DNA of 64,000 bases, taken from the sequence record OR757453.1; one strand, written 5' to 3'. This document shows positions 633-51,468 of this stretch, piece after piece (positions within the stretch are counted from its first letter, which is position 1; each line of letters starts with the position of its first letter). The position numbers were made by a program, and so were the translations under genes. Under the pieces are notes generated by a model. The model was given only the letters and a program-made list of their open reading frames with translations. It ran no database searches and had not been told where the DNA came from. Source of the stretch: Escherichia phage BYEP01.

Positions 633-895
633 TAATTGAGGCCTGAGTATAAGGTGACTTATACTTGTAATCTATCTAAACGGGGGACCTCTCTAGTAGA
701 CAATCCCGTGCTAAATGTGTAGGACTTTGGTTCTACCTAAATGCCTAACGACTATCCCTTTAGGGAGTAGGGTCAAGTGACTCGAAACGATAGACATCTT
801 GCTTCATCAAGATGGAGATATAGTCTGATCTGTATGGTGACATGCAGCTGGATATAATTCCGGGATAAGATTAACGACCTTATCTGAACATAATG
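633..895 (+). ncRNA. group I self-splicing intron in td, ~263 nt, no internal ORF
   Basis: Interrupts td between ...VFLG and LPFNIAS...; begins taattgaggcctgag right after exon-terminal U, contains gggtcaagtgactcgaaacg core-like segment, ends ...acataatg (terminal G) before exon 2; too short to hold an endonuclease ORF. Confidence 0.8.
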
Positions 896-1230: not shown

Positions 1231-1494
1231 ATGATTTTACGATTTAAGGATACTTCTGGCGTCGTTCTTTTTACACTTCCTAATCCAAGTGAGTTAGAAG
1301 TTCCAGGACCAGAACAGCCTATTATTATTTATGGCAAAAAATATTATACTCATAAAATGACTCGTGAGTATTTTGATAATAAAATTTCCACAGTTAAAAC
1401 TTCTTCTGATTGTTATTATGATATTACTGTTTTAACGGAAAAACAATATGACGAACTATTACCGCGCGGGCCGTCTATGCCGGGTAGTGAATAA
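1231..1494 (+). CDS. hypothetical small protein (nrdA.2 position)
   Basis: 87-aa ORF between td and nrdA; overlaps next ORF by 47 nt. Confidence 0.4.
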
Positions 1495-1774
1495 ATATAA
1501 ATCCGACTTTGATGTTAATATTCACCGTGGTACATTTTGGGGAAATTACGTCGGTAAAGATGCTGGCAGCCGGGAGGCTGCCATTGAATTATTCAAAAAA
1601 GATTTTATACGTCGAATTAAATCCGGAGAAATAACTAAAGCACATTTAGAGCCTTTACGTGGAATGAGGCTAGGATGCACATGTAAACCAAAGCCGTGTC
1701 ATGGTGATATAATAGCTCATATAGTTAACCGATTGTTTAAAGACGATTTTCAAGTTGAGGACTTATGCAATTAA
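1448..1774 (+). CDS. DUF4326-like protein (RVVNK...FWGN...GCTCKPxPCHGD motif), nrdA.1 position
   Basis: 108-aa ORF with conserved Cys/His motif [15 protein letters not shown]; overlaps nrdA start. Confidence 0.55.
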
Positions 1775-3198
1775 TTAATGTTATCAAAAGTAGTGGTGTT
1801 TCTCAGAGCTTTGACCCACAAAAAATTATTAAAGTTTTATCTTGGGCAGCTGAAGGAACATCTGTAGATCCTTATGAATTATATGAAAATATTAAATCAT
1901 ATCTCCGTGATGGAATGACCACTGATGACATTCAGACTATTGTCATTAAGGCTGCTGCGAATTCTATTTCGGTTGAAGAGCCTGATTATCAATATGTAGC
2001 TGCACGCTGTTTAATGTTTGCTCTTCGTAAGCATGTTTACGGGCAATATGAACCACGTTCATTTATTGACCATATTTCTTACTGCGTAAATGAAGGTAAA
2101 TATGACCCTGAATTGTTGTCAAAATATTCAGCAGAAGAAATTACATTTTTAGAATCAAAAATTAAGCACGAGCGGGATATGGAATTTACTTATTCCGGGG
2201 CGATGCAATTAAAAGAAAAATATCTAGTTAAAGATAAAACCACTGGTCAAATTTATGAAACTCCACAGTTTGCATTTATGGCTATTGGAATGGCACTGCA
2301 TCAAGATGAACCTGTTGATAGATTAAAACATGTCATTCGTTTTTATGAAGCAGTATCTACTCGACAGATTTCATTGCCAACTCCTATTATGGCTGGTTGT
2401 CGTACTCCAACTCGACAGTTTAGTTCATGCGTTGTTATTGAAGCAGGTGATTCGCTGAAGTCTATCAATAAGGCTTCTGCTTCAATTGTTGAGTATATTT
2501 CTAAACGAGCTGGAATTGGCATTAACGTTGGTATGATTCGTGCCGAAGGTTCTAAGATTAGCACAGGTGAAGTGCGTCATACTGGTGTTATTCCTTTTTG
2601 GAAACATTTTCAGACTGCAGTTAAATCATGCTCACAGGGTGGAATTCGTGGCGGCGCTGCTACTGCTTATTATCCTATTTGGCATTTGGAAGTTGAAAAT
2701 CTTCTCGTTTTGAAAAATAACAAAGGCGTAGAAGAAAACCGTATTCGTCATATGGATTATGGCGTCCAGCTGAATGATTTGATGATGGAACGTTTTGGAA
2801 AGAACGACTACATTACTTTGTTCAGTCCACATGAAATGGGTGGTGAGCTTTATTATTCTTATTTTAAAGACCAAGACCGTTTCCGTGAATTATATGAAGC
2901 CGCAGAAAAAGACCCTAATATTCGTAAAAAGCGTATTAAAGCCCGTGAACTGTTTGAATTGCTCATGACTGAACGATCAGGAACAGCAAGGATTTATGTA
3001 CAGTTCATAGATAATACGAATAACTATACTCCGTTTATTCGTGAAAAGGCACCTATTCGTCAGAGCAACTTGTGTTGTGAAATTGCTATTCCAACAAATG
3101 ATGTGAATAGTCAACAAACCCGTTTAATCAAAATTAAGAAGTCGGATGTAGCTAAGTTTTATGAAGCTAATCCTGGCGGTATAATTCAAAGCAAATAA
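1765..3198 (+). CDS. nrdA: ribonucleotide reductase large subunit, N-terminal fragment (477 aa), ends shortly after the SNLCCEIAIPTNDVN active-site segment
   Basis: Class Ia NrdA homology (ATP cone to NxCxE active-site loop); ORF terminates ~26 codons after the last recognisable NrdA residues. Confidence 0.85.
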   Translation: MQLINVIKSSGVSQSFDPQKIIKVLSWAAEGTSVDPYELYENIKSYLRDGMTTDDIQTIVIKAAANSISVEEPDYQYVAARCLMFALRKHVYGQYEPRSFIDHISYCVNEGKYDPELLSKYSAEEITFLESKIKHERDMEFTYSGAMQLKEKYLVKDKTTGQIYETPQFAFMAIGMALHQDEPVDRLKHVIRFYEAVSTRQISLPTPIMAGCRTPTRQFSSCVVIEAGDSLKSINKASASIVEYISKRAGIGINVGMIRAEGSKISTGEVRHTGVIPFWKHFQTAVKSCSQGGIRGGAATAYYPIWHLEVENLLVLKNNKGVEENRIRHMDYGVQLNDLMMERFGKNDYITLFSPHEMGGELYYSYFKDQDRFRELYEAAEKDPNIRKKRIKARELFELLMTERSGTARIYVQFIDNTNNYTPFIREKAPIRQSNLCCEIAIPTNDVNSQQTRLIKIKKSDVAKFYEANPGGIIQSK

Positions 3199-3246
3199 AG
3201 TACACAGACCGTTAATAATAAATAATCCATAACAAGAGGAAAAGTT

Positions 3247-3957
3247 ATGGATTATTCTAAAATTTACAATAACCTTATTTCTAAAGCTAAGAATAGAAAA
3301 TTAGATTGCTATACCGAATCACACCATATTATACCTCTGTGTATTGGCGGTTCTGATACAAAAGAAAACCTGGTAGATTTGACACCAGAAGAGCATTACA
3401 TAGCTCATCAATTATTAGTAAAGATATATCCAGATAATCATAAATTGATATTTGCCGCTAATATGATGTGTGTTTATTCTGAAGATAATATTGAACGAAA
3501 GAACACCAATAAACGTCATGGGTGGCTTAGAAGAAAATTGGCTATTTCTGTATCTGAAAATAATAAAGGCAAACCGGCTTGGAACAAAGGTATTCCTATG
3601 TCTCCAGAAGTTAAATCTCGACTTCAAACATCTTGGGTGTTTACATTTCCGGATGGTCATGAGGAAATTCATCGAGGTCTTAACGAATTTTGTAAAGAGC
3701 ATAATTTAAATGCATCTGCGATGTCAGCCGTTTGTAAAGGTAAACGGGCGCATCACAAAGGATTTAAGTGTAAGAAATTGGATAAGATTTCAGAGCTTGA
3801 TAATTTAGTTTTCGTCAGTAAACCTCATCCAAAGGGATTAAAACCCCATAACTTAATTGCTGTAAAAATAAACGGTATAGAATATCAATCAATACATCGA
3901 GCATCTAAAGCTTTAGGAATTACTAGAAAAAAGGTAGAAGAATTAAATGAATATTGA
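3247..3957 (+). CDS. HNH homing endonuclease, free-standing, inserted inside nrdA
   Basis: 236-aa ORF with N-terminal YSKIYNNLI...TESHHIIPLCIGGSDTKENLVDLTPEEHYIAHQLL HNH motif; paralogous to ORFs at 30598-31290 and 49730-50542. Confidence 0.8.
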   Translation: MDYSKIYNNLISKAKNRKLDCYTESHHIIPLCIGGSDTKENLVDLTPEEHYIAHQLLVKIYPDNHKLIFAANMMCVYSEDNIERKNTNKRHGWLRRKLAISVSENNKGKPAWNKGIPMSPEVKSRLQTSWVFTFPDGHEEIHRGLNEFCKEHNLNASAMSAVCKGKRAHHKGFKCKKLDKISELDNLVFVSKPHPKGLKPHNLIAVKINGIEYQSIHRASKALGITRKKVEELNEY

Positions 3958-4936
3958 TTATGAATTTGTAGATGAATTTTACGAAGATGATGAGTATACT
4001 ACAATAGAAGTTATTGAAAACAGGGGAGAAGTGGGGCTTTGTACCCTTAGCGCATTTGTGTTGGATAACTTCGATTGGCAAGACCAAGACAAAATTAATG
4101 AATTAGCAGAAGTTCAAGTTCGTGCTCTTGATAATCTTTTGGACTACCAAGGATATCCAGTTCCTGAAGCAGAAAAAGCTAAAAAGCGTCGAAACCTTGG
4201 CGTAGGTGTTACTAACTATGCAGCTTGGCTGGCAAGTAACTTTGCTTCTTATGAAGATGCTAACGATTTAACACATGAACTATTTGAGAGATTGCAGTAT
4301 GGACTCATTAAAGCATCCATTAAGCTCGCCAAAGAAAAAGGACCTTGCGAATATTATTCAGACACTCGTTGGTCTCGAGGCGAATTACCTATCGACTGGT
4401 ACAATAAAAAGATTGACCAAATCGCAGCTCCAAAATACGTTTGTGATTGGGACGAACTTCGATCTGAACTCAAACAGCATGGAATTCGAAATTCTACTTT
4501 ATCCGCGTTGATGCCGTGTGAATCATCCAGTCAGGTATCTAACAGTACAAACGGTATCGAGCCTCCACGTGGACCAGTCTCTGTTAAAGAATCAAAAGAG
4601 GGTTCCTTTAATCAAGTCGTGCCCAATATTGAGCATAACATAGACCTCTATGATTATACGTGGAAATTAGCTAAGAAAGGTAATAAACCTTATCTTACGC
4701 AGGTAGCTATTATGCTGAAATGGGTATGTCAATCAGCTTCAGCGAATACATATTATGACCCGCAGATTTTTCCAAAAGGAAAGGTTCCAATGTCTGTAAT
4801 GATTGATGACATGCTATACGGATGGTATTATGGCATTAAAAACTTCTATTATCATAATACCCGTGATGGTTCTGGTACTGATGATTATGAAATAGAAACT
4901 CCCAAAGCTGAAGATTGTTCATCCTGTAAATTATGA
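3947..4936 (+). CDS. nrdA: ribonucleotide reductase large subunit, C-terminal fragment (GEVGLCTLSAF... to C-terminal Cys pair)
   Basis: Class Ia NrdA C-terminal homology including the CTLSAF cysteine loop and C-terminal CSSCKL tail; own ATG overlapping the HNH gene stop. Confidence 0.8.
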   Translation: MNIDYEFVDEFYEDDEYTTIEVIENRGEVGLCTLSAFVLDNFDWQDQDKINELAEVQVRALDNLLDYQGYPVPEAEKAKKRRNLGVGVTNYAAWLASNFASYEDANDLTHELFERLQYGLIKASIKLAKEKGPCEYYSDTRWSRGELPIDWYNKKIDQIAAPKYVCDWDELRSELKQHGIRNSTLSALMPCESSSQVSNSTNGIEPPRGPVSVKESKEGSFNQVVPNIEHNIDLYDYTWKLAKKGNKPYLTQVAIMLKWVCQSASANTYYDPQIFPKGKVPMSVMIDDMLYGWYYGIKNFYYHNTRDGSGTDDYEIETPKAEDCSSCKL

Positions 4937-4987: not shown

Positions 4988-5663
4988 ATGAGCACAGTTT
5001 TTAATACAAATCCAGTTGATGTTTTAACAGAACCTATGTTCTTCGGTTCAGGTCTTGGAATTGCACGTTATGATATTCAACGACATAAGGTATTTGAAGA
5101 ACTTATTGAACGTTCGCTCTCGTTTTTCTGGCGGCCTGAAGAAGTAAACTTAATGATGGATGCTGCACAATTTAACAAGCTCCCAGAACACCAAAAATCT
5201 ATATTTATCAATAACTTAAAATACCAGTCATTGTTAGACTCCATCCAGGGGCGTGCACCATCTGCGGTACTTATGCCATTGCTTTCAGATCCAAGCCTTG
5301 ATACATGGGTAGCAACATGGACTTTTAGCGAAACTATTCACAGTCGTTCATATACCCATATCATGCGTAACTTGTTCAATGACCCTGCTAAGGTATTTGA
5401 TGAGATTGTACTAGATGAAGCTATCATGAAACGTGCTGAATCTATCGGTCGCTATTATGATGATGTTCTGACTAAAACCCGTGAATGGGAAAATGCTAAA
5501 GAATTTACAGAACTAGCTAAAGAATCTCCTGATGCTGTTTTTCGTTTAAATCGAGCTATTAAACAAGAAGCCGAAGCTAAACGTGCTTTAATGAAATCTC
5601 TTTACCTCTGTTTGCACGTTATTAATGCCTTAGAAGCTATTCGTTTTTATGTATCTTTTGCGT
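4988..5663 (+). CDS. nrdB: ribonucleotide reductase small subunit, exon 1
   Basis: NrdB homology (…RFYVSFAC junction); frame broken by taa at 5663-5665. Confidence 0.85.
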
Positions 5664-5967
5664 AAAATGCGCCTTTAAACGGTAACGTTTATCGAAAACT
5701 CCTTTAATTGCTGGAAAGTCCTTTATAGGAAAACTAGCAGCCAAGGTTTTGCTTGCACCTTTAATTAGCATAATATAAATGATTATACTTTTAAGAGGAT
5801 GCACAATTGCAAAGCAAGGTTCAACGACTAGTCTTCGGACGTAGGGTCAAGCGACTCGAAATGGGGAGAATCCCTCTGGGATTGTGATATAGTCTGGTCT
5901 GCATAGTAATATGTAGCAGTTCATAAGAGAACGGGTTGAGAATTAGCGAGCTCAATCGAACATAACG
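5664..5967 (+). ncRNA. group I self-splicing intron in nrdB, ~304 nt, no internal ORF
   Basis: Separates NrdB ...SFAC from TFNFHKNMEIMEGNAKI...; contains gggtcaagcgactcgaaatgg segment nearly identical to the td intron core; boundaries inferred from restoring the NrdB frame. Confidence 0.7.
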
Positions 5968-6470
5968 GTACCTTTAACTTCCATAAGAACATGGAAATCA
6001 TGGAAGGTAATGCCAAGATTATGAAGTTCATTGCACGTGATGAGCAGCTTCACCTTAAAGGCACCCAATATATTATTCGTCAACTTCAATCCGGTACTGA
6101 TGGCGATGAATGGGTTAAAATTGCTCAAGAGTGTGAACAAGAAGCAGTTGATATTTTCATGGAAGTTAACCGCCAAGAAAAAGACTGGGCAGTTCATTTA
6201 TTTAAAGATGGCGATGTTCCTGGATTAAATACAAATAGCATGTGGAGCTTTATTGATTACTTAACTGTATCTCGTATGAAACAGTGCGGTCTTCCATGCC
6301 CAATTACCGATGCTCCGGTTAAACATCCGTATCCTTGGATTCGTGAATACCTTAATTCTGATAATGTTCAATCCGCGCCACAAGAAGTAGAACTGTCATC
6401 TTACCTTGTTGCACAGATTGATAATGATGTTGATGATAAAGTTATGATGAGTTTTAAAAAATACTTTTAA
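5968..6470 (+). CDS. nrdB: ribonucleotide reductase small subunit, exon 2
   Basis: In-frame NrdB C-terminal region (…EGNAKIMKFIARDEQLHL…SSYLVAQIDNDVDD…). Confidence 0.85.
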
Positions 6471-30599: not shown

Positions 30600-31290
30600 A
30601 TAAATTAACTGTTTTTCTAAGTATTCTTAGTTTGTACATTGATAATCCAGTAGCTTTAGAAGCATCTTTCATGCATTTATACTTAACACCATTTACTTCT
30701 ATAGGTTTAGCAGCTGGGTTATTAGCTCCTGAATTATCTGGCATGTTATCTTTAATTTTCTGAATAGATTTAGCGGAATGTTTCCTTCCATACATGCCAT
30801 TATTTTTACCTGATTGATTGATAGAATGCAATCTTTTAGCTTCTTCAGTCCATTTTGTTGGGTTCATTCTTTTAGTTTTACTAATTTTACTTCCCCACGT
30901 AATTGGACGATTTTTCATGAGTTTTGACATATATTGTTTATGTTCTTCCGTATGGTGTTTTCCGTAAAATGGATTACCTTCACCTGATTGAAGTTTTGCC
31001 ATTTTACGACGTTCCCAGGCGTAAGATTTATTAACGTGTCTTTCATGAGTATTTGAATTCATTCCCATACATATAACGGCTTTAATTATACCGTAATGGT
31101 TTGGATGAATTTTAGCTAAAAGTTTATGAGCTATAAAATGCTCTTCAGCTGTTAGTTCTACCAAATTACACTTATCATCTGTACCACCCATACATCTAGG
31201 AATTATATGATGAGTTTCAGTGTATCCATTAAGGCGAGCCCGATTCTGGGCTCTATTAATTAAATTATCATATATTAATTTATAATTCAA
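30598..31290 (-). CDS. HNH homing endonuclease, free-standing, between uvsW and uvsW.1
   Basis: 230 aa; YKLIYDNLI…TETHHIIPRCMGGTDDKCNLVELTAEEHFIAHKLL; paralog of 3247-3957 and 49730-50542. Confidence 0.8.
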   Translation of the reverse strand: MNYKLIYDNLINRAQNRARLNGYTETHHIIPRCMGGTDDKCNLVELTAEEHFIAHKLLAKIHPNHYGIIKAVICMGMNSNTHERHVNKSYAWERRKMAKLQSGEGNPFYGKHHTEEHKQYMSKLMKNRPITWGSKISKTKRMNPTKWTEEAKRLHSINQSGKNNGMYGRKHSAKSIQKIKDNMPDNSGANNPAAKPIEVNGVKYKCMKDASKATGLSMYKLRILRKTVNL

Positions 31291-32798
31291 AGTTTAACCT
31301 CTTTCATCACATAATTAAACTTCTCATCAGCATAACGCTGAATACGATCAAGTCCATGTTTTAAAAGATAGTTTAAATGCGAGTATTTTTTAGAAGATGT
31401 TTTTGATTTAGAAACTACGCCCGCGTCATCTATGAGATCCCAGACTGTTGCGATTGTTTTAGAACCATGCTTACGTAATACGCGACCTATTGTTTGCAAT
31501 ACAATAATTTTAGATTTAACACCGTGTGCTAAAACAACATGATGCAGATTTTTAACTGAAATACCAGTAGAAAATACACCATAACTCGCTACTATAATTA
31601 TTCCTTTACCATTTTCAGCTAAGGTTTTCATTACGTTGCGGGTTTCGGTATCAACTTCCCCTGATACGTAATAAACTTTATCGTATTCATTTTTAATTAA
31701 ATCGAAAATAGCTTTACCGTGCGATACGTGTTTAAACATGACAAAAGCGTTTTCATCTTTTTGTGCAAGTTTAATAGCTAATTTAGCGATCCATTTATTT
31801 CTTTTACTGAGCCCAGTAATAATTTTTATTTCTTCTTGGTAAGTTTTTCCCTTTAATTTAGTAGTGAACTCATCAGGATAGCGAAGAAAAATACTATTAA
31901 TTTTTAACTCAGTTACTTGTCCATCTTCCATTAATTTAGAAGTCGTTACTGGCTTAAATATTTCACCAAACATTCCAACATACTGCATGATATTGGCTTT
32001 GCCATCACGTAATGAACCGGACAAACCGAATTTGAACATGCAGTTATTTAAACCTGATATGATAGATGAAATACTTTTTCCTGTAGCAAGATGGCATTCA
32101 TCATTCATCATCATTCCAAACTGTGAGAACCATTCTTTCGGTTGTTTAACTACAGTTTGCCATGTACCAACGACGACTGGTGCATCATTTTTATATTTAT
32201 CATCTTTTGATGCTCCGCCGCCAATTTTCTTTATCATTGCATGACTGAATAAACGATAGTCAACAAAGTCATCAGCCATCTGAGTTGTCAGAGCAGTTGT
32301 TGGAACAATGATAAGAATTTTACCTTCATAATTTTCCAAATAATATCGCGCAAGCAAAGCTTGGATTAACGATTTACCAGCGGATGTTGGAAGATTAAGA
32401 ATTCTACGACGATTAACTAATCCTTCGAACACTGCATCTTTTTGATACCAGTGCGGTTCAATTCTTTTATTTCCTGAATAGATTTCTAATTTAGAAAGCC
32501 ATTCATCAAAATCTTTTCTTGATAATTCTTCTTTTTCGTTAATCTGCGGGTCAATCCAGGCTTTATAGCCAAAATTATCACAGAACTTTTTAATTTGCCC
32601 GACTAAGCCGAATGGAAGAAGACGATTATAATCTAAAAGACGGATTCGTCCATCCCAGTGGCCATATCTGTATTTCGGATTAAAACGATACCCATCAGCT
32701 TCAAAGCTAAAGAAATCACGGAGTTCATGAAATGTACTTTCTTCACAATCAATTCTCACGTGACTAAAATCATAAAAATGTACTTTAATGTCAGTCAT
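31287..32798 (-). CDS. uvsW: UvsW RNA-DNA / DNA helicase (SF2)
   Basis: 503 aa; Walker A PTSAGKS and DECH box (MMMNDECH); matches T4 UvsW from memory. Confidence 0.9.
   Translation of the reverse strand: MTDIKVHFYDFSHVRIDCEESTFHELRDFFSFEADGYRFNPKYRYGHWDGRIRLLDYNRLLPFGLVGQIKKFCDNFGYKAWIDPQINEKEELSRKDFDEWLSKLEIYSGNKRIEPHWYQKDAVFEGLVNRRRILNLPTSAGKSLIQALLARYYLENYEGKILIIVPTTALTTQMADDFVDYRLFSHAMIKKIGGGASKDDKYKNDAPVVVGTWQTVVKQPKEWFSQFGMMMNDECHLATGKSISSIISGLNNCMFKFGLSGSLRDGKANIMQYVGMFGEIFKPVTTSKLMEDGQVTELKINSIFLRYPDEFTTKLKGKTYQEEIKIITGLSKRNKWIAKLAIKLAQKDENAFVMFKHVSHGKAIFDLIKNEYDKVYYVSGEVDTETRNVMKTLAENGKGIIIVASYGVFSTGISVKNLHHVVLAHGVKSKIIVLQTIGRVLRKHGSKTIATVWDLIDDAGVVSKSKTSSKKYSHLNYLLKHGLDRIQRYADEKFNYVMKEVKL

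Positions 32799-48957: not shown

Positions 48958-51468
<2,511 letters not shown>

Follow-up and report, generated by a model that had tools for sequence, protein, structure and literature searches.

Positions 5664-5967 (plus strand) of the 64,000-nt stretch of the Escherichia phage BYEP01 genome analysed here (OR757453.1; hereafter the window) were identified as a group I intron of subgroup IA2, namely the phage T4-type nrdB intron in a form without its former homing-endonuclease gene, an assignment to which we give a probability of about 0.93. The element is 304 nt long, contains no ORF, ends in G5967, and was recognized both by the Rfam model RF00028 and by alignment to the nrdB introns of phages T4 and RB3. 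It is an allele of the textbook T4 nrdB intron in a form that is already present, unannotated, in public genomes, and there is little new in the intron itself, as T-even introns are documented to lose homing-endonuclease genes.

The effect of the intron on the reading frame of nrdB was evident from the ORF list and the sequence. The unspliced ORF (4988-5665) reads ...RFYVSFA and then runs into a TAA at 5663-5665, while the frame starting at 5968 reads ...TFNFHKNMEIMEGNAKI... up to the stop codon at 6468-6470. Excision of exactly 304 nt (5664-5967) joins GCG-T to GT-ACC and yields a gene for a 392-aa NrdB protein. Exon 1 (4988-5663, plus strand; delimited by the ORF list and by alignment of the spliced product to E. 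coli R2) supplies 225 codons and the first base of a Cys codon, with U5663 as its last nucleotide, and exon 2 (5968-6470, plus strand) finishes this codon with GT. Across the junction the spliced protein reads ...FYVSFACTFNFHKNMEIMEGNAKI..., and its residues 3-388 aligned with E. coli R2 (1piy; E-value 3.3e-130), with airfyvsfactfnfhkn at the junction and no gap there. The corresponding mRNA would read ...UUUGCGU followed directly by GUACCUUU.... A preliminary description of this DNA had noticed that NrdB stops after RFYVSFA, and had proposed that removing these 304 nt would restore the conserved NrdB junction; both points were borne out, and its proposed boundaries turned out to be exactly those of the T4 and RB3 nrdB introns.

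The class of the element was examined with a covariance-model scan of the 64-kb window. RF00028 matched 5647-5916 with 68.7 bits (E-value 2.6e-15; gathering score 50 bits) and was spanned in full (positions 1-253), in agreement with the group I nature suggested in that description; the only further match in the window was the td intron (623-847, 64.1 bits). At the nucleotide level, the 304-nt intron matched nrdB introns of Tequatrovirus phages: it was 99.7% identical (303/304) over its whole length to the introns of phages PD112 and CE1, and its ribozyme core was about 97-99% identical to the known T4/RB3 nrdB intron. The T4 intron core showed 96.8% identity in two pieces around its I-TevIII remnant. 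Compared with RB3, the 3' 165 nt of the intron were 100% identical, and the 5' 141 nt differed by one base and a 2-nt indel. The alignment with the T4 and RB3 introns covered the whole intron, and the splice contexts matched. Because the window, T4 and RB3 agree in the exon sequence next to each splice site, and the T4 and RB3 records annotate nrdB as a two-piece join, the boundaries of the window intron are those of the T4/RB3 nrdB intron.

Several features define the place of this intron among its relatives. Its insertion after the first Cys-codon base of FYVSFAC, together with the homology along the whole intron, marks the T4/RB3 nrdB lineage, and the U5663·G5669 wobble pair in P1 and G5967 as the last intron base are the marks of a group I intron. 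We placed it in subgroup IA2 because P7.1 (5831-5840), P7.2 (5844-5857), P9.1 (5919-5932) and P9.2 (5934-5957) are present, their pairs being either conserved in the td intron or replaced there by compensatory ones. The three T4 introns belong to this subgroup, and the T4 nrdB intron self-splices; given the 96.8% core identity to the latter, the window intron would probably also self-splice in a guanosine-dependent manner. P10, as read from the sequence, is weak: the guide sequence can form at most two pairs with the 3' exon.

All helices from P1 to P9.2 could be drawn with 100% standard pairs, and P7 forms a pseudoknot with P3 (all coordinates on the plus strand). P1 (5660-5672) pairs exon GCGU and the first intron base A with UGCGC at 5668-5672, with the U5663·G5669 pair at the 5' splice site (5/5 pairs, the same in the MFE fold). 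The P2 hairpin AAACG-GUAA-CGUUU (5677-5690) carries two compensatory pair changes in the alleles of phages SG1 and CJY920. The 5' strand of P3 (5699-5704) pairs with 5863-5868 (6/6 pairs) and is invariant in all alleles, and P4 (5709-5714 with 5734-5739) was found by both the helix check and the MFE fold. P5 (5719-5722 with 5727-5730) shows one compensatory U-A to A-U flip. The P6/P6a stem spans 5741-5819 (5741-5742/5818-5819, 5749-5752/5814-5817 and 5754-5757/5808-5811), and its loop is the former I-TevIII site; in the alignment, the I-TevIII ORF of RB3 and T4 is looped out from P6a. The 5' strand of P7, GACUA (5826-5830), pairs with UAGUC at 5890-5894 (5/5 pairs) and is invariant, the td intron included. 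It is followed by two extra hairpins of the IA2 type, P7.1 (5831-5833 with 5838-5840) and P7.2 (5844-5848 with 5853-5857), and by the P8 hairpin (5869-5883), which differs from its td counterpart by compensatory changes at three pairs. P9 (5899-5916), P9.1 and P9.2 also came out of the helix check.

Minimum-free-energy folding recovered P1, P3-P6, P7.1, P7.2, P8 and P9-P9.2, and mis-paired the P2 region with the 3' end, at a z-score of -2.18. Since plain folding gave this modest z-score and misplaced P2, we took the covariance model and covariation counts as the evidence for the fold. In an alignment of eight natural nrdB alleles (ORF columns removed) and the window td intron, standard pairs occupied 98.3% of the cells, versus 33-42% with the partners slid by 1-3 columns; compensatory changes occurred at 13 pairs, a level matched in 0 of 500 shuffles. 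When only the nrdB alleles were considered, three helices still showed compensation: one pair of P2 changes from A-U to G-C and another from G-C to A-U, P5 has the flip mentioned above, and P9 has a change from A-U to G-C. Another P9 pair changes from G·U to G-C. The core motif pointed out in the preliminary description, gggtcaagcgactcgaaatgg at 5844-5864, corresponds to P7.2 and J7.2/3. Its claim that the nrdB and td introns have a core segment in common also held: the 64-kb window contains just two copies of GGGTCAAGYGACTCGAAA, one in the nrdB intron (5844-5861) and one in the td intron (770-787), and 100 shuffles gave an expectation of none.

We next consider how the intron came to be empty. 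Its closest full-length relative is the 1091-nt nrdB intron of RB3, which has an intact I-TevIII HNH endonuclease, and the alignment showed that the window intron is without 785 nt present in RB3. This gap is flanked by the 7-nt direct repeat ACAATTG; it opens at the TTG start codon of I-TevIII and closes 22 nt short of the stop. The RB3 intron contains ACAATTG at 142-148, ending in the annotated TTG start, and at 927-933, 22 nt before the TAG stop, and the window intron retains a sole copy at 5803-5809, whose final three nucleotides (5807-5809) are the TTG start codon of I-TevIII. Downstream of it, 5810-5831 preserves the final 22 nt of the ORF, including the TAG at 5829-5831, which is where the RB3 annotation ends the ORF (intron position 955); this tail is kept because it also forms P6a', P6', J6/7 and part of the P7 5' strand.

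Upstream of the junction, remnants of I-TevIII expression signals are still recognizable. The Shine-Dalgarno remnant AAGAGGA (5793-5799, plus strand) is the same as that upstream of the annotated I-TevIII start in RB3, and forms a hairpin with CCUUU. Further upstream, TATAAATG (5774-5781, plus strand) aligned with TATAAATA of RB3 and T4 and is a putative decayed late-promoter box, the last base of which is altered by a 2-nt deletion. The RB3 and T4 version matches the T4 late-promoter consensus. Promoters inside these T-even introns have been described (PMC2988022). Two changes, the 2-nt deletion and a T-to-C substitution that breaks the stem of the Shine-Dalgarno hairpin, are confined to empty alleles or to this window and resemble decay that set in once the ORF was gone. 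T4 (598-nt intron) and Salmonella phage SG1 (420 nt) have each lost another part of I-TevIII, at other junctions; ORF deletion therefore recurs in this lineage. Judging by parsimony and by the expression signals that are left, we infer that the nrdB intron is secondarily rather than ancestrally ORF-less, having probably carried I-TevIII and lost it recently.

The opposite direction of change, in which the 304-nt form would be an ancestral empty intron and the RB3 types would have arisen by insertion of an I-TevIII cassette at ACAATTG, appears very unlikely. It would accord with reviews holding that group I introns are ancestrally ORF-less and were later invaded by endonuclease genes (PMC3073962; PMC3984707), and with the insertion-like placement of the ORF in the peripheral P6a loop. 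However, the Shine-Dalgarno sequence, the TTG, the promoter-like box and the sequestering hairpin, all of which should arrive with the cassette, are retained upstream of the junction. Moreover, both halves of the intron are 99-100% identical to RB3-type introns; the split must therefore be very recent, and ORF-bearing forms are widespread and more diverse. The other partial deletions of the same ORF in T4 and SG1 also speak against insertion. In T4, loss of the DNA between short direct repeats is a classic event, whereas insertion of homing-endonuclease genes is not known to create target-site duplications.

As a result of the loss favoured here, 5664-5967 encodes no endonuclease and holds no ORF, and the element is a non-autonomous derivative of a homing intron. 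On the minus strand, small ORFs overlap the intron at 5637-5804 and 5821-5955, and we regarded them as fortuitous. The preliminary description had stated that both introns of this phage are endonuclease-free while free-standing HNH genes occur elsewhere, which is what we found (304 nt in nrdB and 263 nt in td, with no ORF in either, and three phrog_655 homing-endonuclease genes in the window). From this it had concluded that the histories of intron and endonuclease are decoupled. That the nrdB intron is now endonuclease-free stands, but I-TevIII scars remain in it, so the two histories are not decoupled in nrdB. Its statement that the T4 nrdB intron is about 0.6 kb long and has a defective I-TevIII agrees with the 598 nt in the T4 record.

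To place this form among other phages, we examined 873 phage records with DNA similarity to nrdB. Only 117 of them cover at least 80% of the exon-plus-intron query, a coverage out of reach for intronless alleles; most relatives are therefore without the nrdB intron, as had been supposed for T-even phages. The intron segments flanking the junction were found in 123 records, and a clean one-piece ACAATTG junction in only six (five phages): PD112 (two records), CE1, SP21535, CJY920 and DCP80. Among the intron-bearing records, ORF-bearing forms are far the commonest. The empty introns are 304 nt long in PD112 and CE1, 300 nt in SP21535 and 309 nt in CJY920. A 25-mer spanning the deletion junction had 0 matches in IMG/VR, and full-text searches, in whose coverage the 2004 T-even survey of Sandegren and Sjöberg did not fall, brought up work on the T4 and RB3 forms and on trans homing but none that describes an nrdB intron wholly without an ORF.

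None of the junction-carrying records annotates the intron; nrdB appears as separate CDSs or is partial (DCP80), and CJY920 is unannotated. In segment coordinates, PD112 (vB_vPM_PD112) has two NrdB CDSs (825-1502 and 1837-2307), CE1 (vB_EcoM_CE1) has CDSs at 125-802 and 1128-1607 with exon 2 labelled 'major capsid protein', and SP21535 has both exons as 'hypothetical' (125-802 and 1124-1603). In all three phages the second nrdB CDS begins at an internal ATG. As a side observation, the empty-intron junction in DCP80 (PQ671644.1, 141 kb, filed under Gaprivervirus; segment 1-1258) lies beside an opposite-strand DNA primase gene, and no nrdB exon 1 is annotated upstream of it; this record may be a rearranged or chimeric assembly.

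Taken literally, the two CDSs annotated in PD112, CE1 and SP21535 would mean that the intervening sequence stays unspliced and that nrdB, whether as a gene in pieces or as a pseudogene, gives two polypeptides, and the same window does hold a real gene in pieces, the HNH-split nrdA, which has no intron signal. We nevertheless consider this reading highly improbable for nrdB, even more so than an ancestrally empty intron. The intervening sequence matches the full-length group I model, has intact core helices with covariation, and is nearly identical to the T4 intron known to splice. In addition, the break falls inside the conserved FYVSFAC-F segment, CTFNFHKN is absent from both pieces, and no obvious ribosome-binding site precedes the ATG at 5991. 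An assembly or sequencing artefact such as a collapsed repeat, conceivable for a deletion between two identical 7-mers, is the least credible explanation of all, as six independent GenBank records, which differ in laboratory and host, show the same junction, a repeat of 7 nt falls far short of the length needed to collapse an assembly, and the alleles carry their own small loop changes.

Another question is whether the intron shares its recent ancestry with the rest of nrdB. Exon comparisons were made against PD112, RB3 and phage 235Ecol030PP; T4 exon 1 was unusable for position-wise comparison owing to indels. The intron together with 112 nt upstream and 122 nt downstream showed one mismatch in 538 nt relative to PD112, whereas distal exon 1 showed about 13% mismatches, the rest of exon 1 being about 87% identical between the window and PD112/CE1 despite their common junction and identical close flanks. 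The middle of exon 1 (5088-5450, plus strand) is a rare allele patch, 96.7% identical to 235Ecol030PP, a phage whose nrdB intron is full length and includes I-TevIII; identity to the 443 other records did not exceed 86%. These comparisons point to a recent ancestry of the intron and its close flanks that differs from that of the rest of nrdB, as would fit recombination or co-conversion. Separately, the 5088-5450 patch begins near the MobE nick site in T2 nrdB (gene nt 122-126, about window 5109-5113), and it may represent either exchanged DNA or a variant that confers nuclease resistance.

A second kind of mosaic was seen in CJY920, whose intron (segment 801-1109) is chimeric, with an SG1-type 5' half (different P2 and P5, with compensatory changes) and an RB3-type 3' half. 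Its deletion junction is the same ACAATTG junction as in the window, so either the deletion arose more than once or recombination took place inside the intron.

The T4 nrdB intron is immobile alone and is moved in trans by MobE (PMC2790892), and the RB3 I-TevIII drives intron homing (PMC1865063). In the window mobE is absent, the nrdA-nrdB spacer being only 51 nt. The homing-endonuclease gene closest to the intron, an HNH gene of phrog_655 (3247-3957), lies inside nrdA, about 1.7 kb upstream; trans or collaborative homing would require a free-standing endonuclease that cuts the intronless allele within about 2 kb, close enough to co-convert the intron. As in known cases of collaborative homing and of MobE trans homing, a nuclease-less intron is found here in a region with free-standing HNH genes. 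It is conceivable, though we regard it as rather doubtful, that the intron still spreads between T-even phages as a hitch-hiker, the approximately 540-nt PD112-identical tract in an nrdB that otherwise resembles that of 235Ecol030PP being the product of gene conversion by another nuclease and ACAATTG being a recurrent deletion hotspot, seen with two 5' halves. Candidate nucleases for such spread are the HNH gene in nrdA, or I-TevIII or MobE from a co-infecting phage.

The td intron (633-895, plus strand; 263 nt) is also ORF-less, and its exons join FLG to LPFN; its T4 counterpart measures about 1 kb and encodes I-TevI. The td introns of the window and of T4 belong to the same subgroup as the nrdB intron and have P7, P7.2, the J8/7-P7' core and GGGTCAAGYGACTCGAAA in common with it, but the host gene is different and the 5' halves are hardly alignable. 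nrdA is present as two ORFs (1765-3198 and 3947-4936, plus strand) with the HNH gene, which has a NUMOD-like domain, between them, and the break lies just after the SNLCCEIAIPT active-site loop. The N-terminal 99 aa of this HNH protein are 49% identical to RB3 MobE. The possibility that the HNH gene is part of a group I intron or intein was rejected, as an Rfam scan of 3100-4100 with E-values up to 1 gave two chance-level matches only. The split nrdA resembles the RNR large-subunit gene in pieces described for Aeromonas phage Aeh1, and many Tequatrovirus records annotate two alpha-subunit CDSs at nrdA. The other phrog_655 HNH genes lie at 30604-31293 and about 49733-50542 (both minus strand; E-values 4e-60 and 1e-52), and their proteins begin with a Mob-type N-terminal motif (LNYKLIY... 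and MNYTKIY..., respectively). Between td and nrdA, 1448-1774 (plus strand) encodes a 108-aa DUF4326 protein (Pfam E-value 5.5e-22) and overlaps the end of the preceding small ORF.

Compared with known systems, the window intron resembles the T4 nrdB intron in gene, site, P1-P9.2 architecture and the TAA spanning the 5' splice site. T4, however, keeps 294 nt of an ORF with an internally deleted HNH half, whereas the window keeps only the start codon and the last 22 nt; T4 has mobE between nrdA and nrdB, where the window has only the short spacer, and the deletion junctions also differ. In contrast to the mobile RB3 intron with its working homing endonuclease (PMC1865063), the window intron, 785 nt shorter, is predicted to be incapable of self-homing.

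These features suggest the following course of events. Transcription of nrdB would yield an RNA folding into the P1-P9.2 ribozyme, and free guanosine would attack after U5663, which forms the U·G wobble with G5669 in P1. The 3'-OH of exon 1 would then attack after G5967, joining GCG-U to GU-ACC and restoring the Cys codon and the 392-aa NrdB. The in-frame TAA over the 5' splice site may halt ribosomes before they reach the ribozyme, as in T4. The presumed ancestor was an RB3-like 1091-nt intron with I-TevIII in the P6a loop, from which a 785-nt deletion between the ACAATTG repeats would have removed the ORF, leaving the P6a stem and every core helix intact. With no endonuclease the intron would no longer home autonomously. 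It may persist since imprecise loss would destroy an essential gene, and the occupied allele would no longer offer an intact I-TevIII homing site. Any movement would be passive, through ordinary recombination or through gene conversion begun by the nuclease of another element.

For annotation, these findings mean that the proper description of nrdB in this phage is a single spliced CDS, join 4988..5663, 5968..6470 (window coordinates). In PD112, CE1 and SP21535, too, NrdB should be annotated as one spliced CDS instead of as two fragments, 'hypothetical proteins' or a 'major capsid protein'. The mosaic that surrounds the intron provides material for testing the movement of endonuclease-less introns between phages, and the clean deletion between 7-nt repeats, together with the decaying expression signals, offers a snapshot of the post-loss stage in the life cycle of a homing endonuclease.
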